This document shows positions 1 through 49,595 of a stretch of DNA of 64,000 nt, piece after piece. This stretch comes from Dudresnaya verticillata (Eukaryota). The translations under genes were made by a program, and so were the position numbers. Position 1 is the stretch's first letter. Each line of letters starts with the position of its first letter. The stretch spans positions 1,116,001 to 1,180,000 of the forward strand of contig OZ374564.1 in the NCBI GenBank assembly GCA_977862235.1, in the 5' to 3' direction. The notes below the pieces were generated by a model. That model was given only the letters and a program-made list of their open reading frames with translations. It ran no database searches and was not told the origin of the DNA.

Positions 1-1010
1 CTCCAATTTGTCCTAACCGATAACGGACCGCAGTTTACTGCTGAGTTCTTTGACGCAGTGTGTTCCTTACTCGGAATCAGGCATTTACTTACCGCTGCCT
101 ACCATCCTACCACCTACCGCGACTACCAGTACCTGCAACCGTTGACGTATACATACAACATGCGGGTACACCGTATTACGGAAACACCGCCATTTGATTT
201 GGTGCTGACACGCCACCCATCGGACATTGTTGTACGAGGGGCTCTTGTCGAGCATCAAGAAACCGTTAGGGAAGGGCGTATGACCCCGGTGCTACAGAAG
301 TGGAGCACCATGCGCCGTTTACGGTATGCGCTCCAGACAGCGCGCACTAAGCAAACAGTGGCTCAGCAAAAAGCCAAGGCACTGTTTTACCGTAAGGTGC
401 GCTTTAGGCCTATAATCCGTAACGGAGATCAAGTCTATGTCGACAGGCCGCCCCATAACCTGCGGCCGACCGAACGCCGTGAGCGGGACCGATTGGAAGG
501 CAAACCGGATGATGTGGGCGAGGTGGCTCAAGAAGTGAAGAGACTCCTTCCGAGAGCCACGGGGCCTTATGAAGTGGAATCCGCAACGGAACATGTCGTT
601 ACAATCCGCAAGGAAGGGTTATTGATCCCAGTAAGTATAGATCGCATCACGAAGGTTCCGATCGGAGTTGCAGTTCAGCCGGCACCCTTGACAGTGCCGC
701 CTGTCACGCCATCAACCGTTTACGGAGAAGTAGTGCCACATCCAGAAGGCACTACAGTAGCGCCTACACCGTCAGCGGGCATTACACCCTCCATAGCGGA
801 ACCCCGACAAGCCGATACGGAATATGTGATCGACAAGATTGTCGGTCACCGCGACGAACCTACTGGGATGACATACAAAGTGCGCTGGTATGGTTACCCT
901 CCGGATCAGGACAGTTTTTGAGCCCGCGGAGGAGTTGCCGCGGAATTTCATCTACCGGTATTGGAAGCAAAAGAAAAAGGCATCCGCTAATGGTAAGCCA
1001 TGGAGACGTG
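1..1010 (+). pseudogene. Gypsy integrase C-terminal part with GPY/F motif and chromodomain, frameshifted
   Basis: LTDNGPQF (bases 11-34) and TAAYHP; LPRATGPYEV; EYVIDKIVGHR...YKVRWYGYPPDQDSF. An extra T near 915-919 breaks the frame, which continues as EPAEELPRNFIYRYW. Confidence 0.9.
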
Positions 1011-1511
1011 CTAACCCAACACGTCACTCACCGTAACGGACAATTGGAATGCTAGTGTGTGGGAACGTACAATGTTTATCGCAAGCTAAGGTCGAGGCAT
1101 ATTTCAAAACCGTTAAGGAGATCGTCGAACTGTAACTCTAAGAGTCACGGCGACGCCGCTTCGGAGCAGGGGCAACGGTATCTTCCTCGTTGCCCCCTGA
1201 CCCGTTCGAAAGCCGGGTTCCCCACTCTGATCCGATTAGAATGCACGCTGCGTATTGTCTTCCAAGACGCGAATCACACTATCCATACGCCGACGCTGAC
1301 GACGGACTACTGCGCGGAGATGAATCACCTTCTCCATTAGTCCCTCCGCTAAGGTTGGCGCCTCCTGAACGGATCCTGGCAATGGGAAGCGCTGTGTACG
1401 GCAAATGCCCCGTAGCACCTGTAGCCTGCTTTCCGTAGCGGCTAAGTGAGCCGGAACTGTAACGGTGGGATCCTCATCTTCCTGAAACTCTACCTTCGGG
1501 GATATAAACGG

Positions 1512-2213
1512 CTAATCCCTAACCCCGGCTTCGATTGAGCGCTCCGTTGAGGAAACCACCAATACGGATGGTCCCGACTCGGGTGAAGGTACTTCCTTCC
1601 GCGGAGGTGGGTTTGTGTCCTTCTCTGGAGAGGCTATATCGCTTTTCCGTAACAGTTCAGGACTTGACGCGGGAGCCGAAGGCTTGTCACCAATTACCCC
1701 GGCACTTGGGCGTTTTGGAGCCACTTCCGGTACGGTGATAGGTGCCTCACTCACCACTGGTGTGGGAGTGGGTGCCAACAGCGGAGCACTTGTCGGGGGC
1801 AGTTCGGCGGCTGCAGGCATTTGCGTCGCAGGAGACAGTGCTGCCGGCACAGTAACCGGCGGTGCTTCCGAAACGGTCTGCCCCTTCGAAGCCCCTTTCT
1901 TGGATGGTGCCGCAGGCTTAGGCACCGCAACAATAGGCTCAACCACGTCTATGGGTTTTGGGGTCTTAACCAACACGGGAGTAGTAGTCTCACGATCCAC
2001 ATCGCGCGACGTAAATGTAGCGACCACCGGAAGGACTGGAGCGGCTGTTTTCTCGATATTCGCTGCCATCGGTGCGACGGGCATGACCTCCTCCTGTTCT
2101 TCCAAGAAGGGGCCAGCTTCTTGCTGCCTCACCGTAACGGAATCGCTCGGGTCGATTGCACGCGAACGCCCCGCTGTCTCCTGACAACTCCCCCAATATT
2201 CGGCCCCATCCAA
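1512..2213 (-). CDS. Pro/Ala/Ser/Thr-rich low-complexity tail, probably the frameshifted continuation of the E1 antisense ORF
   Basis: Same strand and directly downstream of 2253-3629. E3 has the same layout (15401-16726). Confidence 0.55.
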   Translation of the reverse strand: MDGAEYWGSCQETAGRSRAIDPSDSVTVRQQEAGPFLEEQEEVMPVAPMAANIEKTAAPVLPVVATFTSRDVDRETTTPVLVKTPKPIDVVEPIVAVPKPAAPSKKGASKGQTVSEAPPVTVPAALSPATQMPAAAELPPTSAPLLAPTPTPVVSEAPITVPEVAPKRPSAGVIGDKPSAPASSPELLRKSDIASPEKDTNPPPRKEVPSPESGPSVLVVSSTERSIEAGVRD

Positions 2214-2252
2214 ACCGTCACGGTACGCATCCCTTGATGCTTGGCGAGGCGC

Positions 2253-3629
2253 TTAACCCCGATGGGGCTGCACCTCTAAGGCGAACCATTCCGGACGCGG
2301 ATATTCTCGATGAAGGAAATATGGCTCACCCACTCCGGGCCTAAGCGGGGGCACCGATAGGACACGGTCCTCATCCCAACTATACCCCAAGAAGCCCGGA
2401 GTGCGTTGCCAATCCTGCTGTCCGTGTACGGATAAAAGACACTCAACCCGATGAAGAGGATACGCCGACCCCGTCACCAAATCGGTTACGCCGACTTGGC
2501 GAATTAGGGCGATCACCGTCACGGGAAGTTGAAAAATACGGCCACAGTCTCCTCCGCGTAGGTCAGCTTCGTCACGCTGGAAGCAGTGCCAGTCGGATAA
2601 CTTGGTATTGCACCGCACTCCGTAGTAGGCAACCTGGAGCCACGAAAATAGCACCAGCATTGCCCACTCCGATCTGAAGATGCTCCAAAGCACGTCGAGT
2701 TGATCTTGGATCGGGGGACGCTCTCCGTTCGGATGTTCGTGATTCCACTCCCGCTCCGGGAGCAGGTTCGCAGAGAAGTACGCCACCACAGAAGGCGTGG
2801 GCACGGATAACCAACGAGTTACCTCGTATCTATCCCACCACGACGGAGCTGTGAGGTAGAGCTCACGTCGCATCTGATACGGAAGGTGGAAGAACTCCTT
2901 GGTATTCCACAGTTGCAAGATGGGTGCCCCCATATGCATTCCGTCTCGATAACGCGTCCGCAATCGGTGTTCCGTCGCCGCGTCGTCTTTCCACCCGTCG
3001 GCATAGCGGAACCAATACACCGACTGGTCATGCGGTGGGTCGAAGCAGATAAACTGCACCCCGATCGGTGCACCCCGTAGACGGAACGCCTTGGCCAACA
3101 AACGGCTCACCTTCGCGGTATACACAACTTCTCCGTGGCCGTGGCAACGGTACCACAACAAATCCGAAACGGTAGTGGTGCGTTCCTGGCAGTAGCTGTG
3201 CACCCATCGGCTTTGCCACACAAACGCCCGCCGGTTCGGCACGAAACCAATTCGCTGGTTTGCCTTGAAGGGCTGCTCCGAAACGGCTTGGTATCGTCGC
3301 GCTTCCAAAACGGTTGGGTAACCCTCGATGAAGTATGACACTGTCATCGGTGGTGTCACCTTCGCCCGTTCCGAATCGGATCTCGTCGGGCGCCCCGCAC
3401 GGTGCTCAAAATGGTGCCCCGGCCAGTATCCGCTCGGGACAGGACCCTCACCGGTACGGGTACGCGCCATCGGCATCCAAGAGCCTGTCGTAGGCGTCAT
3501 GCTCCACACTGGCACGCGCGACCGTTTCGGAGTGCTGCCTGACGCATATGGGCTCGCGCCCATGTTCCGCATCGGAGTTGAGACTAGGATCGATGGCGTC
3601 CGTAACGGAATCGATGGTAGGTCCGCCAA
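2253..3629 (-). CDS. Antisense ORF of E1, unknown Trp/Pro-rich domain (458 aa); probable true start is the ATG at 3978 via a frameshift near 3670
   Basis: Long open frame opposite to pol, between integrase and PPT. Motifs align with ORFs 14613-15488 and 48696-49595. Confidence 0.7.
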   Translation of the reverse strand: MADLPSIPLRTPSILVSTPMRNMGASPYASGSTPKRSRVPVWSMTPTTGSWMPMARTRTGEGPVPSGYWPGHHFEHRAGRPTRSDSERAKVTPPMTVSYFIEGYPTVLEARRYQAVSEQPFKANQRIGFVPNRRAFVWQSRWVHSYCQERTTTVSDLLWYRCHGHGEVVYTAKVSRLLAKAFRLRGAPIGVQFICFDPPHDQSVYWFRYADGWKDDAATEHRLRTRYRDGMHMGAPILQLWNTKEFFHLPYQMRRELYLTAPSWWDRYEVTRWLSVPTPSVVAYFSANLLPEREWNHEHPNGERPPIQDQLDVLWSIFRSEWAMLVLFSWLQVAYYGVRCNTKLSDWHCFQRDEADLRGGDCGRIFQLPVTVIALIRQVGVTDLVTGSAYPLHRVECLLSVHGQQDWQRTPGFLGYSWDEDRVLSVPPLRPGVGEPYFLHREYPRPEWFALEVQPHRG

Positions 3630-4298
3630 GTTGAGCTCCTCAGCACCACGTCGGACCTCCTCGTCATCATCCTTGGTCGAATCTTCTCCGTGACGGTGGG
3701 TCGCCGCATTCCCTAACTGGGTGTTCCTTGCGGCTGGGCCAGCAGCAAACGGATTCGGATCGTAGACAGACCAGCCGCGGCCCGCCGAGAGTATCTGTGA
3801 CGGTTACGCTGCGGTAACGCCCGTGCGACCACTCGTCGTGCGTGGTACCACAACCGCCGAGGACGAGGCCTGCGCTTGAGTCGAAGCATCTGTAACCGTA
3901 GGCGCACCTGGCGCTCTCGTCGTCTAGCTCGCGCGGGAACGCCGTTTCGGTTGAAGGCTTGCTCTTCTCCCCTGCCATCTTGGAAGCGGGCGCACGAAGG
4001 AGAAGGAAAAGTTGAGGAAGATAGCCGTATCGGTTGTGTGTGGGTGTGGAAGCAAAGGTAATCCGTGACGGTGGGCGCCCGAAGACGTGGCGCCATCTTA
4101 AGGAGGGGGGTCTGTGGTGAAGTGAGCCGTAGCGCGCATGCCGCACGCCGACGGCGAGCCAACCGTAACGGCTGATGTGGCAATACGTCACGCTGACGAT
4201 ATGGCAACGTGTAGCCGTGTCGGATGTGTGTGCGTATGTATTGCTGTACGCTGGTACGCATTGCTGTACAGCAGTGTAGCGCACCAACCATACCGGAG

Positions 4299-4306
4299 TA
4301 TTTATA
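4299..4306 (-). promoter_or_regulatory. Candidate TATA box for the E1 antisense gene
   Basis: TATAAATA on the minus strand, in a locally AT-rich patch about 320 bp upstream of the ATG at 3978. Confidence 0.35.
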
Positions 4307-5134
4307 GTATTTATTCCTTATTTTTAGTGAGTCTGTGTACAGTGTGTAGAGTAGCGCGCCAGCCAATGAGAATGCTGCGCATCTCCGTGTCGGAGATTGG
4401 GACCAGCAGGGCCGATTCCGCCATAGGACCAGACCAGTAGGGTCTGGCCCCCACGGACCGGACCGCTCGGTACCACCCTGACTTGTATATCAGCGCGACA
4501 CCGCAGCGGCTCCTAAGGTAAACGGTAAAGCAACCTTAGCCCAATCCTTTACGGTTTTCCCCGCGCCAAGCCCGTTGCGGTCTACCACCACCACCGTTAC
4601 GGATTCCATTCCGGCACTTGTACCACCCCCTTGTCTGTTGCTTCCCAATATCCGTCTCGGTTAGCCGCTCGCTGTTCTCCCGTTTCGGTGCGAACTGCTC
4701 TACCACCCCGTGGAGGTAGTGTTGCTCTCGTCCGTTAAGGAAAGTCAGGCCAGCTGTCCGTCTCGGCGTTCGTGGGTTTTCACTACACCACACGTTCGGT
4801 GCGCCGACGCCGGGAAGCAGACACACGTTGAACTACATCGCGGTGCACTTCCTCGAGCGCCTCCTGAAGCCTAGAAACTTCAAGAGGCTGTTTAGCACGC
4901 ACCTCACCAAGCGTTGACAGTTCCGTATGCTTCTCTAGCGGCAAAGCTGTAATACAGTGAAGGGCTTACAGAAGTGGGCCCTCTGCCCTCGTGTATGCGC
5001 TGAAATATCGTTACCTATAGGGCGCCAACAGGGACAAGACGGGTAGTCTCTGAATGGTCCAAGTGTCACCCTGTAGGTCAGTAGCTTAGTATCTGTCGAT
5101 TTAGTTTAGAAATTATAGCTTAGGATAGGGGGAG

Positions 5135-5466: not shown

Positions 5467-8400
5467 AAAGCGCGTAGAAGCGGTCTTTTCGGAGCGATGC
5501 CTGTCATAACTTGCAATGGACAGCGGAAGACCAAGGGCTGATCCTTCTTGACCGGGCCGAGGCGTTTAAGAGGTGCCTGATTCAGGACGCTCTGTACACA
5601 TTCAGTTACTGCTGGCCAGTCTTTAGGGGCTAGCTTCCATTCCGAGAGGAGTGCAGTTACGGCCCGTTTCACCTCTCTACATACGCGCTCCACTGTCCCA
5701 TTAGACCAGGGAGAATAGGGCGTCGTAAAGTGGCGCTGCACATGGATGTGGTATAACGAAGTCCACGGTAATGCGGGGAAGTCTCGCACTGTAAGGAATG
5801 GCCTCGGAGCCTAACGAATGGCCTCGTAGCCTAACGGAGAAACGAAAAGGGGTGGTAGCGTGGTAGAGCGGAGCAACCAACACGAAGGACCACGGTGTCA
5901 ACGTATTCGTGTGCGGAAGGGAGAACTCGAGCGATCGATCACCGGGGATGACTCCGGGTGCGCGGGGCTATCGAAAGCGAGGCTCGACCGTATCCTCGGT
6001 CACGAAGACGAAGACACCGAACTCCAAGAAACAGGCGTTTACCGAAGACTCCGAGGTCCGGGCGCTAGTTGCTTACCGGAAATCCTCGGAGGTTGTGCCA
6101 GACGACTGGCTAATTAATACTACGTGAGCACGAATACACGTCAACGCGGGAGACGGTTCGTACTCGAATGATTTGTAACGGCCTCGGTGCCAACGAACGG
6201 TCGTCTCACGTATGGTGGCGGTTACGAAGTGCGCCAGCGATGCATACGGAGGTGCACACGCTTCGTGGGCCTCGGTGCCGTTACGCGCGGGAAACAACGG
6301 GAAAGTCACGAAGGAGTCAGCGATTTCGTATCGGGTGCGCACTGTAATGCGAATGCCATCGTGGCGCGCGCACAGTATGCGCACTGTAATACGTTTGCCA
6401 TCGTGGCGTGCGCATTCACGGAGTCACTTCGAAATTCGTATTTCTCGATCATTTTCACGTAGACCACGGAGTCGTTTCGCGCACAGCGTCTATACCACAA
6501 TGGAACTCGTCCGTTAAGTGTTTGACGAGCCAGTTGAGGAAGTGCGATCCCTGATCGCTCACTAACCAATCCATGGATCCAAAGGTAGCAATCCACATGG
6601 ATAAGGTTTTGGCAGCAGCCGAAGCATCTGCAGCGGATGCGGGGAATAGCCAAACATAGGAAGACAAGTCGTCACGCATGAGGAGCAGGTACTTGAGCTG
6701 CTAAGTGCTCTCGTCCATGTACAAAACTTCCACATGCAACACCTCGTTCGGCTTTGAGCCATGTAGAGCGTGGGAAAGAGGACGTGGAACGAACTTTCCG
6801 GATCTGTTGATGAGGCAGTGCAAGCACAATCTCACGAAGGTGGAGACTTCCAGTTTCAAGTTTTCCCACCAGAACTGCTCCCGAAGGATGCTCTCAGTGG
6901 CGTCTTGGCCCCGATGGCCCACCATTCCGGCGTATGACCCCACTAGAATACGCAACTTAAGGTCCTGCTCCACTTCAGGGATCCAGATTCTTCTTTCCAC
7001 GCGCCATAGCCCATCTTCATCGGATAGCTTGGCTGTATTCGGGGGAAGGTGATGTTTTAGGGCGTTCCGAATGGTCTCCCACTCGGGCCAGATGACCTCA
7101 TTCAACCTGGAATGAGCTGTGGAAGATGCTTAACGAGACCAAAAAGCGCCTTTAGAGCCTTGGGCTCGGTGCGATACCCTCGTAACCATCGGGTGAGGAC
7201 ATCCGCGAACACATTCTTGGCTCCGTCAATATGCTCGATCACATAACTGAACCTAGAGAGGTACAGTGCCCAACACTGTACCTTCGACACGACATGGCGC
7301 CGCAGCCCGGGGTCTAGTGCGAGCGGAGCAAACACGAAGAGTACGTTGCGATGGTCCGTGAAAACGTGGGCTTCCTGCGCACCAAGGAAGAGGTAGTCCA
7401 GCCTTGAGAATGCTTGGAAGATGGCGAAGCCTTCCTTCTCGAAGGTAATCCAGCGTTTTTCGGCTTTCTTAAACTCCGCACCTAACAATGCCAACGGTTC
7501 GTGCTGCTGTTCCTCGAAGGGCACCTTGAGCTGTCCAGGGTCTGCCTGTGTTACGACCGAAGACCAGAACCGGTCGGACGCGTCGGTGAAGACGCAAAGT
7601 GTCATTTCAGGCTTTGGGTGTGCCATTTTAACGGCTTGTTACAGCGTGTCTTGTATGTCACGGAACGCGTCAGCATGAATAGCGCCAAAAGACAGGGTGC
7701 ATAAGCGGATTCCCCAGATGGATCGAGTTTTGCAGCGGCCTGGTTTGGCGTATGCCTTTTCCAACAAGGCTTTCAATGGTGCCATCCGCTGAGGAAGGAG
7801 CGGGATGGCCTGTAACATCCTTTGGCAGCATTACAGGAACTGGGCGAGTTCATCCGCGGTTTCTGGAAGGGCCATAGACCGTATAGCGGAAAATCGAGCT
7901 GGATCCATCTCGTAACCATCGGCTGAGATGATGCGGCGGCACCATCTAACGCGACGAGTGAAGCATGTGCACTTTCGGGCGGAAAGGTACAAGTTTTGTT
8001 CTTCACAGATGGCAAAGCAGCGCGCAAGCAAGCGTAGCAAAGCCATCTCATCCGTGGCGTGGAGTGTGACGTCATCCAGCCACGCCTTCAGATTGTCTCG
8101 AAGGTCCTGGAAGAGCGGTTCAATCGAGCTCGGGAAATACGCCGTGGCATCGGTCAGGCCAGGTAACACCCGAGTGGACGAAATTACACCGCGAGGCGTG
8201 ACAATGCCAGAGGCATCGTAGGAGTCTGGGTGAAGTGGGAGCTGCCAGTACGCCGAAAAGAAGTCCAAAACGGCAAAAGACTTGCTGTCAACGACGTCAC
8301 GCAGTTCAGATTCGAGGTGGGGCATCGGCCAGGATTCTTTGACCGTGGCGGCATTGACTGGTCGCAAATCAATGGCCAGACGATACTTTGGGCGAGATCC

Positions 8401-13074: not shown

Positions 13075-13997
13075 TGTGGTGCAAACGTCCTGGACGAAAC
13101 ACCGCCGAGCAGATCGGGGCTCGGTGGGTAACGACGCCCGTGGCGGTGAATGACCTCGCCTAGGGCGGCTTGTGGTAGAGCGGTTGACACGCCTTGGGCG
13201 GACTGTAAACGCCCGAGACGGAAAGGAAGAACAAAAGAGAACGAAAGGGGAACAAGTCAACGACGGTGGTTGATCGTGGAAGCACGGGAGGTAGACGCTT
13301 CGGCCGTAGACAGCGGTAGCGGGGGGTACGCGCGTGCGGAACGGGGAAGTCTGGACCAAGCCCGGCTTTCCGGGAGTTTACCTCAACGTCTGGGACGGAT
13401 CAACGAAGTATAGAACTACTTAGCGGCGGCGACGCGTGCGTACGCGCCGCGCGGGAACTCGGGACACGTGTTGTCCCGAGGCGCATCTGACAGATCCGTC
13501 GGTCATGTAGCCGCGCTCCTGACAGATCACGCGTAGCTTCCCCGCTTGAGTCCTTACACATACACGTGGGTGTACTTCCTTACAGCCACACGCGCCTCAT
13601 GGTGCGTGCGATCTCGATCCGCACTAATCCCGATCCAATCCCGATTCGGGCCAGCCATGCGGATGCGCCAAGCTTACAGGCGCGTGCCTTACACCTCTTA
13701 ATCTCGATGTCTGATCCCGATGTGGCATTCCGATTGGATCCGGATCCGGGCCACACTTACAGCGAACGTTCCCGCCACTGCGCCATGCGCGCACGCGTGG
13801 CGCCGTACAGTGTTCCGGGTTCGGGCGTGCGGTCTGCAGGCCAAACGAGCCGTTCTGGCCCGGGTGGTCAGAGGCATGCGTCGGTGACGTGTTTGCGCCG
13901 CGGGCGGGTTGTGCGCGCGGTGGGCGGTCGCCCGTCGGTAGACGCGGAATATCAACCCGCTTGAAAGCGAAAAAGGGGAATCCCCTCTGGCACTACA
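13075..13997 (-). repeat. 3' LTR of E3
   Basis: TGTGGTGC...GCACTACA inverted termini, adjacent PPT, homologous to the LTR starting at 25328. Confidence 0.85.
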
Positions 13998-14612
13998 CGA
14001 CCCCCTCCGAAAACACAAACACGTCAACTTGCTTCAGCCCGCCTGCCTTCCTGCGTCCGCGCCGGTCGTCTGGGTCATCCGCGCCTTCTCGTTTGCACTT
14101 GCCCGCCCTTGGCGTTGTTTGAGCCCCGTCGAAGACGCACGTTCAGCTTCCCCCGCCTTTGGCGTAGGAACGTTTCCCGTCCAAGACGTACAGTTGCCTA
14201 ACTTCGCCAGTGGCGTGCGTGAAACCCTGTCTGTGACGTCGTATCTGTGCACGCGTTCGTGCACCTACCGCCTAGGGGTGGCTTTGAGTTCCGCCTTCGG
14301 CGTTGTTTGGTCCAACGTCGTTGACGTGTGTTTGTTTGTTTCCGCCTTTGGCGTAATTCACTCAACTTCGGAGTCAAGACCGTCGTTGACGTATCGTGCG
14401 AACTCCGCCAGCGGCGTGTGATTGTTGAGCGTCTCAGACGTAATTGCACAATTCAACGGCCTGCAAGTGGCTGCGCCTTCGGCGGCGCCGGTGTATCCGT
14501 CACCATTCGACTTTGTCTGGAGGATTCCCGCAACGATGCGCGCTTATTCTCGCGGACCCCCTGATTCAACCAGCAGGCCCTGCGGCACGAGGATCTCATC
14601 ATCCATTACGCT

Positions 14613-15488
14613 GTGAGCGGATGTTTGCCAGGGGAGTTACCCCTGACCGTCGTGTGGACGAACGAGTGGCGCCATCGGTGCGCCATTACGAGAGGCTGGC
14701 TGCGTATTACAGCCGGTCAGATGCGTGCAGATGCGCATGCGCGTTTCGTCGTGGACGTATATCGGCGGTTTACCCGCTATCCGGGGTCGGTATTGACGCC
14801 AGCCGTCTTTGAGTTTGACGCAGGGCAGTACCGCACCAGTGGTGCGGTTGGGAATGGAGACCGTTTTGGGACGTTGTCACTGAGCCATGTGGCTGTTTCG
14901 ACTGAGCCGTGGGTGCTTCAGGAGGCTAACCTCCTTGGTGTACGCTTGAAAGCGGATTTCCGATACCTCCATAGGACGGGCACCTTCTATTGGGAGCGCT
15001 GCGTCCGTTGGGAGTGCGAAACGCGCCGCCGCAAAGGTGTTTTCGTTCCGTATCAAGATACGGAAGTTGATCGCATTGAGCGGGAAAAGTTGCCGCACTG
15101 CTTCATCCGTGTCCCGCCGCTGTGGTGGGACTTTGAAGTCTGCGAGGGCTTTGCGGTTGATTTGCCTCCGTGTGTCATGTATATTGGCTCCGAGGTGCGG
15201 ACGGATCCGTACTCCCGATGTTGGATCGCATTCTTCACCGAGTGGGTCATCAATTTGACCTACGCCTGGATGTGGGAGGTGAATGACACCTTCCGTCTCT
15301 TTTACGTGCGACCACGCGTGATCAGCCTCCTTGGCGCGCTCGACTTGGCCGAAGTGCTGGTGGTGCCAAGAATTGCCAAGCGTTCTGGGATCTACGCCAT
15401 GTGGCGGATAACGTCAACTGGGACGATCCGGCTGTTGTGCCGCCGAGAAACAGACGCCGTAAGGCAAACCGTCCGCGTTACGCGATGA
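14613..15488 (+). CDS. Antisense ORF of E3, conserved domain part; frameshifts near 15360 into ORF 15401-16726
   Basis: VPPLWWDFEV...VDLPPCVMY...FTEWVINLTYAW...RLFYV aligns with the E1 antisense ORF. Confidence 0.7.
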   Translation: MSGCLPGELPLTVVWTNEWRHRCAITRGWLRITAGQMRADAHARFVVDVYRRFTRYPGSVLTPAVFEFDAGQYRTSGAVGNGDRFGTLSLSHVAVSTEPWVLQEANLLGVRLKADFRYLHRTGTFYWERCVRWECETRRRKGVFVPYQDTEVDRIEREKLPHCFIRVPPLWWDFEVCEGFAVDLPPCVMYIGSEVRTDPYSRCWIAFFTEWVINLTYAWMWEVNDTFRLFYVRPRVISLLGALDLAEVLVVPRIAKRSGIYAMWRITSTGTIRLLCRRETDAVRQTVRVTR

Positions 15489-16726
15489 GTAGAAACCATT
15501 CCGCCTGTGGCGATTGGGTGAGGTACAACCCGGGGACCAAACGTCTTACGACGGAGAACATCGCTGAGAGCCATCGTCGTACGGACCGCTTCACGCCAGC
15601 GAACCACCCACGCGGGTTGCGCAAGAATTACGACTTCGCGGGTGATTTCCCGCCGCACTTGAGCGCCATGATGGCGGAGGAGGATGCGTTCCACGCTAAC
15701 AGCGGACCGGTTAACCCATCTGGGACGGAGGTAATTATGCCTATGGCGGTTGAGTCTACTGCGGGGGCAATAGCCCCTGCGACAACTTCGCCAGCGGCGG
15801 TAGGACCGGCGGTTGTTGTGCCTGTTGGCTTGCCGTCGGTTGCGCCGTTGGATCTCTCGGCGCCCGTCAATGACGGTGATGGTGATGCCATCATGGCTGC
15901 GCCAGTGGCGAATTCTGCGTCTGCAGTTACGACTCAAGGCGGAGTGTCTAACGTCGCTGACGGTGCGCATCGCACTCCTGCAGGGGCCGAATGGACTGAG
16001 GAGCAGCGCCGCACGGTGCTCGCATTCTTACGGGCCACCGGTGTCGTCACTGACGGAGCGAGCGGAACATCGACGACGCCACTTGGGCACTCGCTCCTGG
16101 CTGCTCTGCAGCCCAGCGTTGCCGTGGTGCCGGCGTCGACTATCGTTGCAACTGTGCCGTCTAATGACGAAGTGGCGAAAAAGCCGGTGTCGCCTAAGGT
16201 GGGTTGTTCGGGTTCGTCCGCCATTGCGTCTACCGACGTTGTTAAAAAACATCCGCCAAAGGCGAGTGCGATGAAAGCGCCTACGGCGGGTCCGCAGGCT
16301 CCAGTAGCCTCTTCGTCCGTGACGGATGTTGACCGTTCAATGCCTTTGGCGGTTAATGGGGTCCCGTCACCGGAGGTGCCGGGGCCGTCGACTTCGCCCA
16401 AGGCGGTTGAGGATGCTCCACCTCCAAAGGCGAGCGAGCTTCCTTGTGTAGCGCCTAAGGCGGATAATGATTCTAACTCTGCGCCTGTGGCGGTTGACAA
16501 AGAGTCGTCGCCTAAGGCTTGGGGTGAGCCAAGCTCGTCGCCAGCGGCGGATGTCGCGACTTCGACAGCGGTGGTTGTGGCGGGCCCCTTGCGGTCTGTC
16601 CCTGCACCTACTGCGAGCGCACCGTTGGTGACGGAAGACGACCTCTACGAAGAGGCGTTAAGAGAATCCGCCAATGGCATCGGGGATGATGCCCCATCTG
16701 AGCCGTCTGCGACGAAAAAGCCGTAG
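15401..16726 (+). CDS. Antisense ORF of E3, C-terminal part with Pro/Ala/Ser-rich tail (441 aa)
   Basis: Long open frame containing the DWVRYNP motif followed by a low-complexity tail, as in E1. Confidence 0.6.
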   Translation: MADNVNWDDPAVVPPRNRRRKANRPRYAMSRNHSACGDWVRYNPGTKRLTTENIAESHRRTDRFTPANHPRGLRKNYDFAGDFPPHLSAMMAEEDAFHANSGPVNPSGTEVIMPMAVESTAGAIAPATTSPAAVGPAVVVPVGLPSVAPLDLSAPVNDGDGDAIMAAPVANSASAVTTQGGVSNVADGAHRTPAGAEWTEEQRRTVLAFLRATGVVTDGASGTSTTPLGHSLLAALQPSVAVVPASTIVATVPSNDEVAKKPVSPKVGCSGSSAIASTDVVKKHPPKASAMKAPTAGPQAPVASSSVTDVDRSMPLAVNGVPSPEVPGPSTSPKAVEDAPPPKASELPCVAPKADNDSNSAPVAVDKESSPKAWGEPSSSPAADVATSTAVVVAGPLRSVPAPTASAPLVTEDDLYEEALRESANGIGDDAPSEPSATKKP

Positions 16727-17938: not shown

Positions 17939-20900
17939 TTACCCGCACTGCGCGTCGTCGATGTTTGGCGGCAGACGCGTGTGCTTCTGGCGGTGATATC
18001 GCACGACGTGTGATCGCGGTAGACTGGAGACTGGTTCCCAGGTATTAGCTGAGGCGGGGTATCCAAACCACTTGACGCGGTAGAGTATCTCACCGTCTTC
18101 CGCGTGTGCGTGCGACTCAACCCGTTCGATAACGTACTCCTTCTCGCTTGCAGCGGTCGACGTGGACTCCTGCCGTTTTAACGCCTTGGGCGGTTCACTT
18201 TGCTGCGTGATGGGCGTCTGCACCGGTTCTGCGAACCGTACTCGACGAGTCGATCGCCTAAGGCGCTGGGCCGGTGCCCGAGCGCTTCCGTAGCGGATTG
18301 TGGTTCGTCGCTTTTGCGTACTGGTTCCTCGCTGCCAGCGTTGTCCTTTGGATTAGCGCGGCCTTCCTCATCGACATTCGATGCGCTCGGAGCGGGACCT
18401 ACATTGGTAGCCGGCGATGCCGAGGTTGCGTGTCCCATTCGCGTACGGATGCCTGGACCCTCCTCATCGTTGGAGACGGATTGCGGGACTCCTTCATCAG
18501 GGTTGGCGGCGACGGGCGAGATCTCTACCAACCCACGACTTCGCGGCGTTGCATTAATTCGCTCCTGCGAGTCTTCCGCGCTTCGCGGTGTCCCTGTGCC
18601 TCCGACCAGGTCCGCCTGTGGCGTGTCTGGGGTTCCTGCTCCTTCGTCTGTTGACGTGGGGGCAGTGGGCCCCGGTACTTCAGGTGGTCCCGGTGGTTGC
18701 ACGGTTGCGGGGGCGACGTGCCCTAGTGGGGTTGGCGCCCATACCACGTGGTCCCGGGATAAACGCTAGCGTTCTCCACGTCCCTTGTCGACGGTGACCG
18801 TCTCTTCATTGACGTGAGTTACCCGATATGGTCCATCCGCCACAGGCGCGAGCTTGTGCTTCCTCTCGGCGCGATCGGTGCTCCCGCCACGGGCGAAGTA
18901 TTACTTTCGCACGAATGCGAAGTCACCCACAGCGATGTTCTCCTTCGATTTCCTCAGGCGAGTATCGAAGTTCCGTTTGTAACGCGCCTGCATTTTCTCG
19001 GGCGACATTTTAGCGGTTCCCATCAATTCTGCAACCCAGGTGCACCACTTGGTGTAGTACTGGTCAGCGGTGGGCACGCTTTCAAGCGACGGTTCCGCTT
19101 CCAGCGACAATGGCAGCGGGGGCTTGGATAGTACCAGTTCGAACGGAGCGAGGTGTGTAGACGAATGCAGTTGCGTATTGTACGCGAACTTCAAAACCTC
19201 GGTAAAAAAATCCCAGGCGTGTGGGTGGTCTGCTACGTAGTGACACAGGGAGGCGAGGATGGTTCGATTGAATCGTTCCACCTGGCCGTTACACTGTGGA
19301 TGATATTAGTGGTGAAGAGATTCTCCTCTCCTTGGATGCGGCAGACTTCCTGGAACAACTTGGCTACAAATTGCTGCCCATTGTCGGACAGCAGCTTCTT
19401 GGGTGGGCCATACACAAACACCCAGTGTCGAACAAACGCCTTAGCGATTTCCAATGCCGTAATCTTACGTAAGGGAACCGTCCGGACCAGCTTCGAGAAG
19501 CGGTCCGCGATGCCGAGTAGGAACTTATATGCCGAGTAGGAACTTATTCCCCCGCTTAGTGCGATGCGTTACCCGAGTATATCGATGGACACAAACTCGA
19601 GAGGCTCGGTGGCTGGGAACAGTTTCATCTCCTTCACGTTCTTTCGCATTAGTACCCGGTTCTTCGCGCAGGTAACGCAGTTTCGGACGGTCGCGTAACA
19701 ATCCACCGACATAGACGGCCAATAATACTCGCGTCGAAGCGTATGGTACAGCTTCCGCCCTCCGGGATGTCCTGCTAATTTAGCGTGATGCTGGAGGTGG
19801 ATCAATCGAACGCGTAACGCGGATGGTACAACGACTTGAGGTCGGGCCTCGACGGTCCGAACCAATAGTCCCTGTTCATCCGTTGCAAAGAGTAGGGCGT
19901 CTCCGTCTTCTAGACGTTCCCAGATCTCGGAACAGTACTGGTCATTGCCCTGGGCATGCAACAACTGTTCATGCGTCAATTGACGGAGGAGAACTTCATC
20001 CGCCGGTGGCGCGTTGGTAACCAACATCTCGTCAAACTCCTCGAACTCTCGTTCGGAGAAATCGACTTCGCCCTTGGCGCTTGACGTATCGCTTTCTCCG
20101 TGAGCGTAGCCGTCTTCTGACGAGTGATCCTCGTCTTTGACGCAACTTCCGTGGTAACACGGGATTTCATCGTCGATCGGTTCGACCGTTTCGCCGTTCG
20201 TCTGTATACGCGAGAGGGCATCTGCCTGAGTATTCAGGTATCCCTTTTTGTACTTCACGACAAAGTCGAATTCAGACAGACAAAGGCGCCATCTCATTAA
20301 CCGTCCCGAGAGGTCGCTGATTTCCATCAGGCTACGGCTACCTCAACGACGAATGGTCCGCATGAACTACGAGGCACTCCATCTGAAGGTACGGTCTCAA
20401 TTTTGTGATCGACCAAACCACTGCGAGGCATTCCTTTTCGGATACCGAGTAGTTGCGCTCCGGAGCGGTTAACGAGCGTGACCAGGAGCCAAGCGACTTC
20501 CGTTCACCGTCAGGCTGCGGTTGGAAGAGTGCACAGCCAACTCGGTATTCACTCGCGTCACTATCGACGTAGTGCGGTAGTCCCTGCTGCGGCGACACCA
20601 GGATGGGTGGGTGAGTCACCGCTTCGACAAGCGTGCTGAATTCCTGAGCTTGCTCCTCGGTGAACGGTTGTAACCGGAAGTCTTGCTCTTTCCTCAAAAC
20701 TTTGTTGAGGGGAGCGGCGACATGCGCGTATCGCGATAAAAGCCGTCTATTGACGTTGCACAATCCGAGAAAGCTCCGTAATTCCTTCTGGTCCCGCGGG
20801 TGCTTGGCTTCGCGTATCGCGGTGGTGACCGTACGGTCTACTTGCAATCGTCTCGGACGTATCACTTGGCCTAGATAGTTGACGGTCGGGGTGAAGAAGT

Positions 20901-22450
20901 CGCACTTGGTCAACTTCAATGTTACCCCGGCCCGATGCAAGGTCGAAAGGATCTCGTCAACGTGACGGAAGTGACTGTCCATGTCGTTAGAGAAGATGAT
21001 CACATCGTCAAGGTAGACGAGCATGAGCGCCACTTGTAACCAGCCAGTAAGATATCAAGGGTCCGTTGAAACGTAGCCGGCGCGTTAATAAGCCCGAAGG
21101 GCATACGCTTGTAGCGGAACAACCCGGCATGGCACGTGAACGCCGTCTTGTCGCGATCCCGCGGGTTGATGAGCACCTACCAGTAACCACTATTGCAGTG
21201 TAGGGTAGTGAAGACGTTTGCTTCCCCTAGACTTTCAATATATTCGTCGATTCGCGGAGAGGGTACGTGTCTACCGTCACCGCGTTCAAGCGACGGTAGT
21301 CGACGCAGAAGCGGAGTGTACCTTCCTTCTTGGGAGCAAAGACGACCGGCGACGCACATGGCGACTGTGCGGGTTCGATAACGCCCTGAAGCAGCATGCG
21401 ATCCACCTCCGCTTGGGCGAGTTGCCTTTGCTTTGGGCCAGCGCGATAGGGCAGGGATGAAATCGACCTGGAGCCGGGGAGCAAGTCAATATAGTGCTCC
21501 GTGGTTGCGATTTCTCCTAATGAACCGTCCCACATCGACGAGTACCTGCGAAGCATCTCCTTCAGCCATCCTTGATGTTCGGCTGAGAGATGACTCAGGT
21601 CCAACTCGTCCACTGACGGAGGTTTTTGCTACAGTTGCTTCGATCGACTTAGCGAATGTATCCGGCTGTGCCGTTACTCCATCATTATTTTGAAAACGGA
21701 AATCTTGATTCGCCTCTTCCTCCGTTGCCTGCTCCTCGGTGATACCTAGGACATCGGCCAGACTTATGTGACTGGGGAACACTGCTGTGGGATGTGGCAA
21801 CGCAGTAGCGATGACTTGTCCTTTGACGAGCGCCTGCGGACGCGGGGAAACGTTTGCGACGAGAATCCGGAACGCTCTCAGCGGCCCTACCGGAGCGACC
21901 CCGTTAGTAATGGCCAAAGCTTGCCGATCATATACCGTTCCAAACAGCGGGATGGTAATGACCCCTGCTCGTTCGGTCGTTACCGAGATCCAATTTTGCG
22001 CCTGTGTCGGGATGATCGTTCGTTTCGCAACGCGTATCTTGGGCGCCGTTTGCCCTCCGGCCGTGCCGTACTCTTGTTCCGTTGGCAACGGGGGTACGAC
22101 GGGGGCCGGCGCGGCGGGAGGCGCGTTATAGGGACGCGGGTCCCGTCGTCCAACTCAATCTCGCGACTCCGCGGATAAATGGCTTCGACAAAGCGGTCGC
22201 AAAAGTCGCAACCGAGTATAACCGGCGCAGCGAGTCGTTCGCAAACGATTAACTCCAACTTGACAGCCCTTCCTCCGATACATACGACTAATTACATGGT
22301 GCCTTCGGTTTGAAACGCCTTGTTATTGGCGTCTAATATTACAGGAAGACTCTTGGATACGATCCGTGGTCGCACTTCTATTGGAATGTCGTCAATACGA
22401 ATGAAATTCGGACCAGCCACGTGTCGATCACAGTACTTTTATGTTCCAAT
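17939..22450 (-). pseudogene. E3 pol (protease-RT-RNase H-integrase-chromodomain), multiple frameshifts
   Basis: VIDT/AGPNF near 22430; SPVVFAPKKEGTLRFCVDYRRLN; VYLDDV; ERNYSVSEKECLA; ERFNRTI; EYVIERVESH...YRVKWFGY...TWEP. Confidence 0.92.
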
Positions 22451-25400
22451 GTACTAACAGTTGCGCTCAAGTAGGCGTATACCTTTTAGTTACTTTTGGC
22501 CATTACGAACAAGTGTCCCCGTCCTCGCGGGGTTGGTACCTTCGCCAGGGGCGCTTTAACGACGCCTGTGACGAATATATCCGCCCTTTAGCGTGTTCAT
22601 TGACTAGCTTCGGGCCCTCCTTCGGTGTTAACACCCCAGACGGAGGTCTCTCGTTATGTTGTGACACTCCAGTGTCAGGATTCAGTACCATAGCTAGTTT
22701 TTCGCCTCTGGCGGTTGTTGCTGCGCTATGCAGGGATTGATCACTTTCGGGTGGCGTTCTGCCGCATGCGGCATTGGTCCGCCTCGTGGCGATTGTGGTC
22801 GTGCAGCACGGCGGATCGAGTCGTGAGTCGCGCGTTCCTTGACACGGGTGTCCGCGTCAGCTGGGACTGCGGCCTTCTCTGCGTCCGTTAGGCATTCATA
22901 GTTGGTAATCACATTCATGAAGTTGCTCATGCGGAGGAAGCAGTCTCGCGCGATGTGTCCGCGGGCGTAAAACTGGTGAGAGATTAGCTGTCGGTGCGCG
23001 TCTTGACGGAATGGACCCCGTTCCTGCCATCCTGGCCTTGCCTGGTGGACCTGTGGGGCATACCCCGAGTATGGAACACGTGGCGCGGGTACTACCGAAC
23101 GCCGAAAAGCGAGAGAGGGATACAGGTCTTGCTCATCTTCGTCCTCGACGTAATTGTACATTGGCAATGCGGAGGTCGGGACCGAAGCCTGCTCATCGGC
23201 TAAGTATAGATCGCCATCGGCGTATGTTTTTATGTCATCGTGTCGATGACTAGCGAAACTCGGCAGAAGACGCCGCTATCATAGCGCGCGCTGTTGACCT
23301 TGCGCATTCCGTCAGTTGAAGGAGTGCCGTTCGGGTAACGCCCACGGCGGATCGTGGGACACTGGCGTCTTGGGCTAGTACTATAATGTCCCATCGGGTT
23401 GACGCCGAGCTGGAATTGCCACGTCGTTCTCGGTTGGCGTCCCCTTCGTCCTACGTGAAGTAGAATAGCCTCCCGAACGACAATTCCGCCCTCGGCGTTT
23501 CTTCGTGGAAGCGAGCCAAGAGAGACATTATCGTTGGGTCGAGCCCGTCGATGTATAAGGTCATCTTTCCCAATCAGGTCATACGTTACCGCAATGAATG
23601 CACGCTCCGGCTAACCGTACCCCATAGGCCATTTCTTCCACGCCTTGCCTTTGCGGTGTCGAGCGGATTGAATGAATAGCAGTTGCGTACGTAAGAAGGC
23701 TGTACTATAACGCCTCCGGATACGAAGATACTCCACGACAGTGGCACGTTGACATCGACTTGACGGAGCGGAACTGCGTCGCCTCTGTACCTCGAAAGAA
23801 GTACGGTAGCGCGCCGCACGCCTGCGCCTCTCTCATCTCGAGCGTGTCGGCCTCATGCGCAAATCGCGTTAAGAACTCGAGGACAAAAACTGGGTCGTGT
23901 CCATTGAAGGCATCGTTCTGCAACGTTAACTCTAGACGCTTAATGTGGTCCTTGGCCTTGTCTGTCTCGCGTCTGGAGCGTGTCTGTCCCACTTCACTCA
24001 GACGATACGATCGGTATGACAGCAGTTGTTCGAGCAGGGGGTTGGAGGGGCATAGCTCCTTCAGCCATTTGTACGCTTTCCGCGAGATTCTACGGCATTG
24101 CCGTTGGTTGGCCGACCGACATCTTCAGACGATGGGTCCGATGCGTTTTCGTCACTTAACGTATGTGACGATGGAGATGACGAATCCCCAGGTCGATGAA
24201 GTTCCTTCTTCCGTCCTCGACGTGCCTTGCGGCCGCCTTGTTTCTTGCGATCCCTACGCCGACGGCGAAAGTCTTCATCTGAGCTATCTACTTCAGATGG
24301 TGGTCCATTGTGCCACTTGGCGGTTTCGAGTCGCTCGAAGGGGGCGGCTAAGCTGGAGAAACGCTCCCAGGTACTGCGGTCCGAGCGGATATGGGTTGAC
24401 CCGTACCCCGCTTCGTCAGTACATGGTCAAGGTCGGAGCGGAGCCCTTGAAGGCCCCGTCGCGATCTTCCTCCGAAGTCTGAAGACGGCTAAAGATTCCT
24501 CCGATACTGCCGTCTAGTATTTAGGCGACCCGAGCGAGCAGCGCATCGTCTTCAAGGACGAATACCTCTCGGATACGCGTGGTATCGTTAAGTTACTCAC
24601 GCGAACGGCGGTGGGTGACCCCGTTGGCGGTTGACGTGCGGGGGTTGATCTGTTGGCCGACCCCTCAGCGCTTCGACGTGGCGAATTCGGCTTAGCTGGC
24701 GAACAAACGGCACTGCCGTAGGGTGTGGGGCAACATGCCCCAGGTATTGGTGAATCGTCAACAATGTTGCGCTCCGCAGAGCGCCCTTGTTCGTCATTGA
24801 CGGGGATAGATGGTTGGTTTTCTGGACGTTCCGGTTATCTCACGACGGTCTCGGCTTGTCTTTCGTCTTCGGCGCGCTGTTGCTGGGCTTGTACTGTGTC
24901 AGCAGAGTTAACGTATGAGTGATAGGTGCGGAGGGCCGATCCCTCGGTGACTGAGGTACGGACGACAACAGGGATCCCTGTTGGTGGCGGAGGTAACTCT
25001 CCCTCGTTGTTCGAAGCGTGGGTGCCGTCGTGGTCGTGGCTCAGGGGTAACGTCGGGAAGGCCGACGCAATCTCTGTGCTCATGACCCGCCCATATCCTG
25101 TTTTCTTAGCTGGATACGACCGCTCCGACGCGGGGAGACTCGGCGTCGATGGTGGGCGTCTTGAACTGGGGCCTCTCGTAGTTGGCGGTCTGGAGGCCAT
25201 GATACAATCGTAGATCTGCTTGAACACCGTGGACGATTAGTGACACCATCAGATGATGGATTTTCTGACTTCGCACGACGGTAGAGCTCGTTGAAACATA
25301 ACGCTACTTCTAGGCCGGGATATCAGATGTAGTGCAAACGTCCTGGACGAAACACCGCCGAGGAGTTCGGGGCTCGGTGGGTAACGACGCCTTCGGCGGT

Positions 25401-25903
25401 GAGTAGCCACACCTTAGGCCGTAGTTGTAGAGCGATGGACGACGCCTTGGGCGGACTATTAACGACGTAGGCGGAAAGGAAAAACAAAAGAAGACAAAAT
25501 AAAACACGTCAACAACGGGGGCAGATCGTGGAAGCACGGAGAGGTAGCCGCATGAGCCTTGAGGCCAGCGGTTAGGTACGCGTGGCCCGGAAGGGCTAGT
25601 CTGTACCAAAGCCGGCTTGCTCTGGTTTACTCCAACGTTCTAGACGGGGTACCTATTTACCATTAGTAGCACGGATGCCGAGGGCGTCGCGCAAGAACTC
25701 AGGACACTTGTTGCGCTGTAGTGCGTCTAACAGATCTGCCGCGCGGTGCAGCGACGCATCCGACAGGCTTGTGCCACACGTCCTATACAGTTGCTTACAC
25801 ATACAAGTGGCCACGCGCCCCTTACAGGTGCGGGCGCGTGACAACGTGGGTGATCTCGATCCTAATCCGGATCCGCATCAGTATCACGAGTGCGCCGTTA
25901 TTA

Positions 25904-27975
25904 CAGCAATCCCTTGATTCAAGGAATGGCACGATGGAACAGAGGGGATTTCTTATAGCAAGTTGTTTCGTATTTGAGGAATCACCTTTATTTTCTGAAA
26001 TATGAGGAATCACCTTTATTTTCTGAAATATGACTTGTTTGGCCCATGCCTCGAACTTCTGCAAGTTTTAGCTCCAGTCGCAATGCACGTAATTGCGATA
26101 ACAACTAGGGATTCATGACCGGCTGCCTCTCGCATATGCCAATGACCTTGCCAACTGCATCAATCTTACCGGTTATTGGCATTGGCTCCTCTATAGGGTC
26201 AGCGGCAGTATCCGGGCTTTCCGTCTCTACATCCTCCAGATTATTCACTATCGTCTGTTCGAGGCCCTCGTCTCCAACTTCCTCCAAAATTTTGGTATCA
26301 TCCTCATTTAGCGAACTATTGATAGAAATGCGTCTGACAGTTCCCACAAGACATGAAACGACTGATTCTAACGCTTCAGTATCTTCTTCAGTTCGTCTTC
26401 TAAAATCAGCATCAGCCCCATTCCCAGCTGTTATTACCAGGCCGGTATACTTCCAGCAATTGCTTATCACATGGTGTGGAACCTCATTTCATATAGATTT
26501 ACACACTTCATGGCTGTGAGCTGGTCAATTTTGTATATGTTTCCAGAACTGTCGTCAACGTAGTCTATTGCCCTGTTTTCTTGTACGGTACGGTATTTGC
26601 GCTTCAGGGAAGCAATGATACCAGAATCCATCGGCTGTAACTTGGAAGTAGAGCTAGCAGGCAAAAGAACTATCCCAACAGACTCCAGCAGAGGCATGCA
26701 ACCATCCGACCCATGCCCAGAGAAAGTTTCCAGAAACAAAACCACCCTGCTTCCTGGTCTCTGCTGAATGTATTTGTCGAATCGCTTGAGCCATTCGAAA
26801 AATATCTGCAACGTCATCCACGCTTTCTTGTTGGAACTGTAGTCAAATCCTAGCTCTTTCCTTTCCCGAACGCTTTTGAAAACATCGTGGTACCTTTTCG
26901 TTCCCAAGGAATAGGAGGGGAACTTTTTGTGCCATCTGCGTTAGCGCAAACCAGCAAAGTAAGCCTACGCTTATCTTTGTTTCTTCCAGGTACAGCCGCA
27001 GTTGAAATTTTGCGATCCGGAGCCATTGCGTAGCTTAATCCCGTTTTGTCTGCATTCCAGATATCGGCGTGGTGGTAGTCATTGCATATCGATTGGAGCA
27101 ATAGTACTTGGGTTCTTATTGCGTCGGTATCAGCATCAACGCTCTCCCCATGCAGTTTCCTAGCCTCCAGGTTCCAATGATGTCGAAATTTCCACAGCCA
27201 ACCATTGGTAAACTTGAGTGATATCTCCCGCTTTCTGGGAAGTAAAGCGTTGACTTCAGAGAGCAGCCGTGTCGTGTTGACTCTGATCATGTCTCCATAT
27301 ATGAAGTTCCTAAGCTGGTTCTGATCATTAATCCAATGGACCAGACCAGCCTTGATGGCAGGTTGCGCCTGTGTTCTGGACCTTTTTGCATTATTTGGTG
27401 AGATGGGAGCTGCTAGTGATGATCTAGAGGAGAGCCTAGAATTTACCGGACGTAAAGGTGTGAAGGGAAGACGGAGGCTTTCCTGTGCCCACTCTGGAAG
27501 GTGCTGAAATCGGATCAACTCCGCGTTCTGTCTTGGTCGCCTGATTTCCTTTTGGATTTCAATGCGGTGTTTGTTGGTCAAGCATTTCCGCATCGTAATA
27601 ATGGAGAATGATGGTTGCATGTAAATTGAGCTTCACATTGCCACCGTTGTATATTACAGAGGTTTCTACAGAGATGTACAAAGCACGCTTCTATTATCAA
27701 GAGCATGACCCTTTGCATGTAAAGTGGGTACATTACGGGTACAACAGGTCACCTACGAAGAGGACCGTTTCTTGCTCAGTAATATGCTGTTCATAAAGGT
27801 ATTGAAACTTAAGGCTGTTCAGAACCGTTCCCGTTTGAGATTTCTTATAACGCGGAAGGAAGGAATGTACAATGGAAGTACTAATGAAGGTCACGAGTAT
27901 GGTGGACGGCAAAACGTTCCTTGTGTGCGTCAAGGGATTCCTTCCATGAGCGGTCCTTGAATCAAGGGATTACTG
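25904..27975 (-). mobile_element. pogo/Tigger-like Tc1/mariner DNA transposon (2072 bp)
   Basis: TIRs CAGCAATCCCTTGATTCAAGGA / TCCTTGAATCAAGGGATTACTG, TA target duplication on both sides. Confidence 0.93.
26105..27620 (-). pseudogene. pogo-family transposase (CENP-B-type HTH plus DDE), frameshifted
   Basis: KFTNGWLWKF, LHGES, IWNADKTGL, KKAWMT, LFLETFSGH and LQPMDSGII spread over three frames. Confidence 0.9.
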
Positions 27976-46119: not shown

Positions 46120-46163
46120 ATATCGTCACTGGTCAAGAGACTAGTCTGGACCAGTGACGATAT
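46120..46163. repeat. Perfect 15-bp-stem inverted repeat
   Basis: ATATCGTCACTGGTC - 14 nt containing the palindrome AGACTAGTCT - GACCAGTGACGATAT. Confidence 0.85.
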
Positions 46164-48285: not shown

Positions 48286-48695
48286 GGAACAAAAATCTCG
48301 CCTGTCGCATCCACCCATTCTCGCCATGGGGTTGGGAACGGCAGATATCTCCTAGGAGATATTTTAATTTCTCCGCCTTTAGATGTGCCAAAATGTAATT
48401 ATAATTAAAGAGAATAGAGCACGCCAATTCGCCAATTCGCCTGCGGGGTGTACATCAGTGGGCCTATGAGCCTGTGCAAAGGCTCTCCTACAAGACCTAT
48501 GTTGTTTAGAACGACAACTCACAAGCCGACATAGCTCGACTTAAGCATCTCGCGTCGCTCGACACTCGGTGTGCACGTGTATCGCTGCGAACATGGCAGG
48601 CGTATTGCGAGGAGCCTCGGTATCATATACCGTTCACGCTGTATTGCGACCGTACCTTTTGTCGTGACGGATTCGAGGCGTACTATGTCTATGCC

Positions 48696-49595
48696 ATGGA
48701 CATCTTTCTGAGCAATGATGACCTGGAGATCAGAATGGAAAACCTGCCGCTGCTGAAGGGCAGAGTGACTGATAGAAGATCGTTTGCATTTGCCGAGCGG
48801 CCCGTATTCTTCCGGGAACTTCACAACCGTATCATACACAACGTTTGGATTGCTTCGGATCGCTGCATGAGCCGCGAAATCGACACTCTCCCTCCATCTA
48901 CTCTGCAGGCTGACTTCCCAACATCTCCGCAATGGGTTGAAGCGTTCCACCAGCCAGCCGGACGCCCGGTACCGACTCCTTTGGTTCTGTACTACTATCA
49001 TAGGGAGCTTCGTTCTCAAGATGGCCCTCGTCGTACGAAGAGGATGGATAAACTGCAGAAGGCCTTGAAGTTGGAATACGTTGTTATGTTTGTGGAGGCA
49101 TGGTTCTTGGAAGCTGCTATAGGGTCCAGGCAGTTTATCCTTCCGTTTGAAACCATTGAGAAGCTCGGAAAAATAATTGGAGATGTAAAGATCGTCAAGA
49201 ATGTAGCCAACGTATACATTCTGTCCTTGATGCGCCTCGCTGCTGTTACGGATGCCAAACTGTACAACCGCTTCCACTTCGTGCGTTACTCGTGGATGAT
49301 GGCTCAAAATGTTCGCTACACAAAGCTGCCGGTTCCAGACAGCATCTTCCTGTGGGCGAAGAAAGGGACAGGAATCATGTACATGCAGGAGCCTTCTGGG
49401 AAGATATGCTTTGCTTCTTTGTGGACGAGGAATATGTCGTTACGACCACGTACTCTCTTACTCCCATTTGGTATCTTTTGTCCTGATGTTCGAGGTGTGG
49501 ATCCAGTAGTGTCCGGTAAATCTTTGCCGCAATCTCCCTCTCTTGCAATCACACCTAGGACAGCGCTAATGGCATCCCTAAAGGCGCTCAGATGA
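48696..49595 (+). CDS. Intact 299-aa protein homologous to the Gypsy antisense-ORF domain
   Basis: ATG-to-stop uninterrupted. TSPQWVEAF...PVPTPLVLYYY...LEYVVMFVEAW...RQFILP...FVRYSW parallels the E1 and E3 antisense ORFs. Confidence 0.7.
   Translation: MDIFLSNDDLEIRMENLPLLKGRVTDRRSFAFAERPVFFRELHNRIIHNVWIASDRCMSREIDTLPPSTLQADFPTSPQWVEAFHQPAGRPVPTPLVLYYYHRELRSQDGPRRTKRMDKLQKALKLEYVVMFVEAWFLEAAIGSRQFILPFETIEKLGKIIGDVKIVKNVANVYILSLMRLAAVTDAKLYNRFHFVRYSWMMAQNVRYTKLPVPDSIFLWAKKGTGIMYMQEPSGKICFASLWTRNMSLRPRTLLLPFGIFCPDVRGVDPVVSGKSLPQSPSLAITPRTALMASLKALR

Follow-up and report, generated by a model that had tools for sequence, protein, structure and literature searches.

Two retrotransposons in the 64,000-nt stretch of DNA analysed here (hereafter the window), which is a nest of transposable elements, each carry between pol and the 3′ LTR a gene that runs antisense to gag-pol, and this gene almost certainly belongs to a genuine accessory gene family that is under selection. 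The arrangement is best read as a known layout, like that of the antisense reading frames (aORFs) of plant Retand and Grande elements, combined with an undescribed domain. Because both retrotransposon copies are broken, selection holds for the family and not for the copies in the window. As for its role, we tentatively favour, with slightly less than even confidence, a nuclear regulator that sustains transcription of the element against host silencing.

Position and structure of the antisense genes

The more complete of the two elements, E3, is a Ty3/gypsy LTR retrotransposon, as seen from its order of reverse transcriptase, RNase H and integrase, its two LTRs, and the polypurine tract before its 3′ LTR. 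Its fragmented gag-pol (17942..24426, minus strand) matches Pfam families RVT_1, RT_RNaseH, Integrase_H2C2, rve and Chromo (1.7e-9) in Ty3/gypsy order, with the gag part assigned by position only. The 3′ LTR (13075..13997, minus strand), recognised by its termini and by a 315-nt stretch with 77% identity to its counterpart at 25328, lies next to a polypurine tract read from the sequence (14001..14008, minus strand), and the 5′ LTR (25328..25905, minus strand) is truncated by lower-GC sequence beside a DDE transposon. A DDE_1 (pogo/Tigger-type) transposase remnant (26467-27632, minus strand) adjoins this cut end; the primer-binding position (25301-25327) is without the usual TGG start or a complement in the LTR, and one simple test there gave no tRNA-type or self-priming match. 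E1, a plus-strand element, is represented in the window by its 3′ end only: the end of pol (1..990), with an integrase core (rve, E 4e-4) and a chromodomain broken near 920 (Chromo, E 3e-5), both below Pfam cut-offs; a polypurine tract (4100..4110); and a 3′ LTR (TGTGGTG...CACCACA, 4113..4792) whose right end was placed from the terminal motif, the 5′ LTR being outside the window. Integrase and chromodomain of E1 resemble those of E3, and both elements have the chromodomain at the integrase C-terminus that marks chromoviruses, at 37.9 bits in E3, above the cut-off of 25.1, and at 24.1 bits in E1, where it falls just under the cut-off and is interrupted by a stop. Chromodomain integrase, antisense ORF, polypurine tract and LTR follow one another in the same order in E1 and E3, and the gene has in both the placement by which aORF-3R genes are defined, in the interval from pol to 3′ LTR and antisense to gag-pol.

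In E1 the gene (1138..3978, minus strand) is broken and its start is uncertain: the domain is read in a different frame from the ATG at 3978, and in-frame ATGs occur from 3572. Along this strand lie a conserved globular domain of about 335 aa (2346..3353, recognised by HMM and AlphaFold), a P/A/S/T-rich linker (1512..2252, recognised by composition, with a counterpart of low confidence in a homologue model), a further conserved motif, helical and found ahead of the coiled coil in homologues (1311..1403, in the frame of the domain; a profile of the tails of 5 homologues detects it only weakly, at E=0.008 among 1644 frames), and a basic NLS-like C-terminus followed by the stop (PAPKRRRRDS, 1138..1170), resembling a motif enriched at homologue C-termini. 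The sequence-only reading that drew attention to this locus had given the span 1512..3978. This span is no single ORF, since two stops (2253-2255 and 1512-1514) interrupt the frame of the domain and the ATG at 3978 does not share that frame; nor does the gene end at 1512, as coding runs on through a frame change near 1240 to a final stop at 1138-1140. Near 2852 and 2687 the minus strand does contain the motifs quoted for E1.

The antisense stop (1138) and the stop of E1 pol (about 990) converge, and because only about 150 nt separate them, the pol and antisense transcripts must overlap. Such a convergent layout would suit self-restraint, an explanation discussed in PMC7264820, in which the antisense transcript, its protein or both damp the element, as dsRNA or as a repressor, and so limit its copy number. 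We consider this quite unlikely: a role of the RNA alone would leave a conserved fold of 330 aa unexplained, whereas a repressor protein would still be compatible with it.

The E3 gene (14565..16726, plus strand) is interrupted by a shift of frame that falls somewhere from about 15360 to 15490 and separates the domain (core 14898-15359) from the tail, and it ends without a basic motif. The motifs quoted for it lie at 15108-15294 and 15515 (plus strand). Both members of the pair FLGYSW/WVRYNP, which had been aligned with each other, likewise exist, but the pairing crosses the frame change of E3 into a frame matched by neither profile. The P/A/S/T-rich tails ascribed to both genes were recovered (46% in E1 and 47% in E3, vs 23% in the E1 domain).

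Compared directly, E1 and E3 form a marginal pair, their local score of 64 being equalled by 3 of 2000 shuffles and tblastn within the window giving E=0.57; at the DNA level the two antisense genes have no similarity (best blastn E 0.55). They are linked by sequences from outside. A profile HMM that contains no window sequence, only 81 outside homologues retrieved in a search started from E1, recognised among 1644 window frames E1 (E 6e-84), E3 (1.1e-11) and a third, divergent member, X48 (2.9e-6), with the next frame at 0.037 and the best reversed frame at 0.16. E3 was also matched by hhalign against alignment A1 (probability 97%, E 7e-11) and by a subfamily HMM (E 5e-20). The earlier proposal of protein-level conservation without evident DNA similarity is thus sustained by the profile, to which pairwise significance adds little.

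Breadth, conservation and predicted fold of the family

With the E1 domain as query, an index-free protein search yielded 82 representatives, of which 24 reached E 1e-10 or better; one, the repeat protein P0023, proved to be an artefact and was dropped to leave 81. A word-index search gave no match with the single E1 protein, none among longer proteins (1758-5000 aa only), and, when started from the alignment, one protein that was already known. The pattern scans for genomic context were narrow. Of the pattern matches in JGI metagenomes, none of 45 held up with A3, against 1 of 20 with P0104; the viral, phage and prokaryote collections, scanned with limited sensitivity, yielded no credible relative (IMG/VR 0 of 11, phage records no match). 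A Thiobacillus MAG, one of 20 GTDB pattern matches, was rejected (profile E 0.024, 0 matches in that genome), and two JGI fragments of the P0041 cluster labelled ubiquitin hydrolase were disregarded, the 15-residue test stretch not being common to P0104.

Among the 30 representatives that were looked up, three clusters were labelled "hypothetical protein" and one had an organism name, Gracilariopsis chorda. The four G. chorda proteins of this 90% cluster lie on separate contigs, which fits the expectation for a mobile element. The homologues from this species (BWQ96_10536 [PXF39757.1], BWQ96_04855, BWQ96_04265 and BWQ96_06091/07814; match to the E1 domain at E 8e-19 and 33% identity) are true homologues that are annotated only as hypothetical host proteins, and some red-algal "hypothetical genes" are probably transposon accessory genes. 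Because the named homologues are red-algal, the host of E1 and E3 is likely to be a red alga as well, as judged from homologues alone.

Although the median pairwise identity of 30 long domains is 26%, conservation reaches 80% or more in 24 alignment columns, which include six Arg and five acidic ones. With divergence of domain and tail serving as a proxy for selection, the domain was the more conserved part in seven of seven sister pairs (40-64% vs 25-48%). In 17 non-independent pairs drawn from 90% clusters, the domain differed at 81 of 5104 sites and the tail at 143 of 4250, a single pair contributing 50 of the 143; without that pair the values are 1.5% for the domain and 2.3% for the tail. 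Together with a confident fold (see below), this conservation bears out the suggestion that the gene is selected.

The conserved columns include His, Asp, Glu, Arg and Tyr and the domain is compact and enzyme-sized, and other retrotransposons carry extra ORFs for methylases, demethylases or exonucleases (PMC5408684, PMC6338049). All this could point to a captured enzyme of unsolved fold that acts on nucleic acid or chromatin, but no column is invariant in the 82-row alignment and neither an enzyme profile nor an enzyme fold matched, so that we rank this possibility slightly below self-restraint.

In a tree of 36 rows, restricted to domains of 230 aa or more, the family divides into many deep subfamilies; E3 groups with P0041/P0060 (support 94/86), and both E3 and X48 have long branches, that of X48 being unplaced. 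An outside locus, L001, has a reversed LTR start and polypurine tract 75 nt upstream of the family ATG, a pattern that recurred in 4 of 20000 shuffles and that was composed after all three sites had been viewed. Element context thus comes from three loci only, E1, E3 and L001, the last by its polypurine tract and LTR start alone. This small number, and the fact that X48 is open and lies outside a recognisable LTR element, would leave room for the view that the gene is passive cargo or comes from an ordinary host gene family captured by the elements, without a role in transposition. We regard this as very unlikely, since the gene has the same place and strand in E1, E3 (with no DNA similarity between them) and L001, and since the family contains near-identical multicopy clusters besides its deep subfamilies.

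AlphaFold predicts the E1 domain (about 330 aa) as a confident globular structure (pLDDT 88, pTM 0.90), which answers a check that had been proposed for it. In the model of a homologue, P0011, a disordered linker leads to an 87-residue helix (466-552), and this is the one homologue in which a clear coiled coil was modelled. The predicted layout begins with a globular domain of ~330 aa, followed by a disordered linker and then by a helical hairpin and a long helix or coiled coil. As the earlier reader had failed to recognise the family, so did Pfam: none of the 82 members has a domain match, the weak matches being mostly to coiled-coil families (best E 0.0011). Searches of PHROGs, PDB sequences and the ESM Atlas gave no match to the domain, and fold searches (Foldseek/VIA; PDB and viral fold libraries) no significant one, which makes the domain a candidate new fold.

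Position between pol and 3′ LTR is also where an env-like or cell-to-cell movement protein could be placed, and 8 of 32 homologues have a hydrophobic helix at 1.8-2.2. However, of the ten homologues with hydropathy of 1.8 or more, these eight have their peak in the conserved core helix, inside the confidently predicted globular domain, and the maxima of the window proteins are 1.45, 1.79 and 1.42 (peaks of 1.4-1.8). The gene is, moreover, antisense, its product has no viral fold match, and its terminus is NLS-like. We consider an env-like role the least probable explanation of all, in agreement with the architecture noted at the outset.

Known antisense genes and a possible role

In plant Retand, Grande, RIRE2 and PvRetro13 elements and in fungal Boty, aORF-3R genes have the same position, antisense orientation and gypsy host (PMC7264820; PMC11963269). 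The likeness extends to their products, which are without transmembrane envelope features and have a conserved domain, a coiled-coil-type region and a nuclear signal. Retand elements are, however, non-chromoviruses of flowering plants, whereas E1 and E3 bear chromodomains and their named relatives are red-algal. Our results extend the arrangement to chromodomain elements of a likely red alga, which suggests repeated independent invention. GENE23 of Grande encodes a nuclear protein and has an antisense promoter of its own (PMC7264820), and the antisense ORFs of Retand encode TRP28 proteins, some with Smc-type domains, that have been proposed to be DNA-binding regulators (PMC11963269). In these two papers no demonstrated function is reported for antisense accessory ORFs. 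A survey of green plants describes plant extra ORFs as mostly too divergent for a shared-domain definition (PMC6317226).

No member (0/82) matched Transposase_28 (PF04195), PMD (PF10536) or Athila ORF-1 (PF03078) at E 0.01, and these were not among the 25 families listed of the 49 found at E 10. By Pfam comparison the proteins fall outside the TRP28, PMD and Athila ORF-1 families, to which they may yet be remotely related in structure. Two further systems invite comparison. VANC of VANDAL Mutator-like elements and TnpA of En/Spm are lineage-specific, fast-evolving accessory proteins, and the anti-silencing VANC and the Athila accessory proteins have been modelled as coiled-coil oligomers (PMC13547354); for VANC and TnpA the likeness is a functional analogy only, as both are DNA-transposon genes with no sequence match to the family. 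HBZ of HTLV-1 and APH-2 of HTLV-2, driven by the 3′ LTR, follow the same antisense, nuclear and regulatory logic (PMC11963269), but they are unrelated, and the family protein is much larger and belongs to a retrotransposon without env. Among the papers listed by searches of the open literature, judged by title and the opening of the abstract, none describes an antisense gene of this kind in red algae; one may have been annotated earlier as an unnamed extra ORF.

If the product is a nuclear regulator, the 3′ LTR or its flank would supply an antisense promoter for its gene, and the protein, judging from motif enrichment, would enter the nucleus through its basic tail. Its coiled coil would drive oligomerisation, the targets of its globular domain would be the element's own DNA, nucleic acid or chromatin, and the outcome would be an activating or anti-silencing effect that keeps the element transcribed. 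Of 32 long homologues, 10 have the motif K[KR]x[KR] within 15 residues of the C-terminus, as against a mean of 0.15 and a maximum of 2 in 2000 shuffles. The position, orientation, homology and breadth of the family and the conservation of domain over tail are observed, as this enrichment is; the six Arg among the 24 most conserved columns, the long helix of P0011 and the plant precedents also speak for a regulator. Several observations count against it: the terminal motif is absent from the other 22 of 32 homologues and from E3, no fold or family match backs DNA binding, the domain is near neutral in net charge (median +1.5 over 30 domains), so that its conserved Arg may be structural, in salt bridges with the five conserved acidic residues, X48 has no retrotransposon context, and the plant precedents come without a demonstrated function.

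The terminal NLS-like motif and the coiled coil would equally suit an integration helper, that is, a protein of the particle or pre-integration complex that assists in nuclear import or target tethering, and the same role has been proposed for plant aORF-3R proteins (PMC7264820). We consider this unlikely, if the most serious of the alternatives, because the integrase already bears a chromodomain and X48 exists without pol. Also counting against it, particle proteins are not usually supplied from a separate antisense transcript. For the favoured nuclear regulator as for its rivals, a deep, alignable family, a confident model, a modular layout and intact members in G. chorda make localisation, binding and structure testable.

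X48 and other elements of the window

X48 (48510..49595, plus strand), which the sequence-only reading had not included, is open for 361 codons, matches the family at 48591-49121 (hhalign probability 87%, E 4e-6) and has no tail. Pfam and comparison with the pol sequences of the window found no pol near it. Its GC3 of 0.55 is nearer to the surrounding block of 44-51% GC than to the 0.66-0.67 of the retrotransposon copies. At a distance of 3 kb is a fragmented transposase-like gene (41330-45449, minus strand), a weak lead from the ESM Atlas, in which it was matched to fungal clusters at 0.95 with recognition below threshold; one such set of clusters has DUF6830 in 29% of its members. This gene has no Pfam match, and its motifs resemble those of CACTA/En-Spm or Plavaka transposases. 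It and neighbouring ORFs may make up a single large DNA transposon; a search for terminal inverted repeats on either side of it and X48 found none. Two ORFs of no recognised family lie nearby (37991-40474, on the opposite strand, and 36278-36961, minus strand), and directly upstream of X48 an AT-rich tract (46100-48300) contains a number of palindromes as well as a degenerate duplication (47354-47419 / 48031-48091).

X48 may travel as cargo of a DNA transposon, or it may be a domesticated copy or a remnant. A bolder proposal, which we think improbable to about the same degree as an integration helper, is that chromodomain retrotransposons of red algae independently evolved an anti-silencing protein of new fold that also came to reside on a CACTA-like transposon or was domesticated, as X48. 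If true, this would be a red-algal counterpart of the sharing of VANC, MAIN and PMD genes between transposon classes and host.

Two other LTR-type elements of the window have no family member. One, of gypsy order (6704-10400, minus strand), has protease, reverse transcriptase, RNase H and an integrase zinc finger, and no family match on its 3′ side; its gag-like ORF is 38% identical to one at 60654-61217 (plus strand). Degraded protease- and integrase-like frames at 32600-33935 (minus strand), with a 54-nt tandem duplication, belong to a different LTR-type element. Pieces resembling solo LTRs occur at 52864-53153 (72% to the E3 LTR) and 29074-29150 (75% to the E1 LTR). A non-LTR-type reverse transcriptase is encoded at 61241-63211 (minus strand; RVT_1, E 9e-8), and dispersed repeats that are 92-97% identical (5778-6502, 57424-57831 and 63196-64000), with a 90-nt tandem unit, adjoin reverse transcriptase of this non-LTR type.
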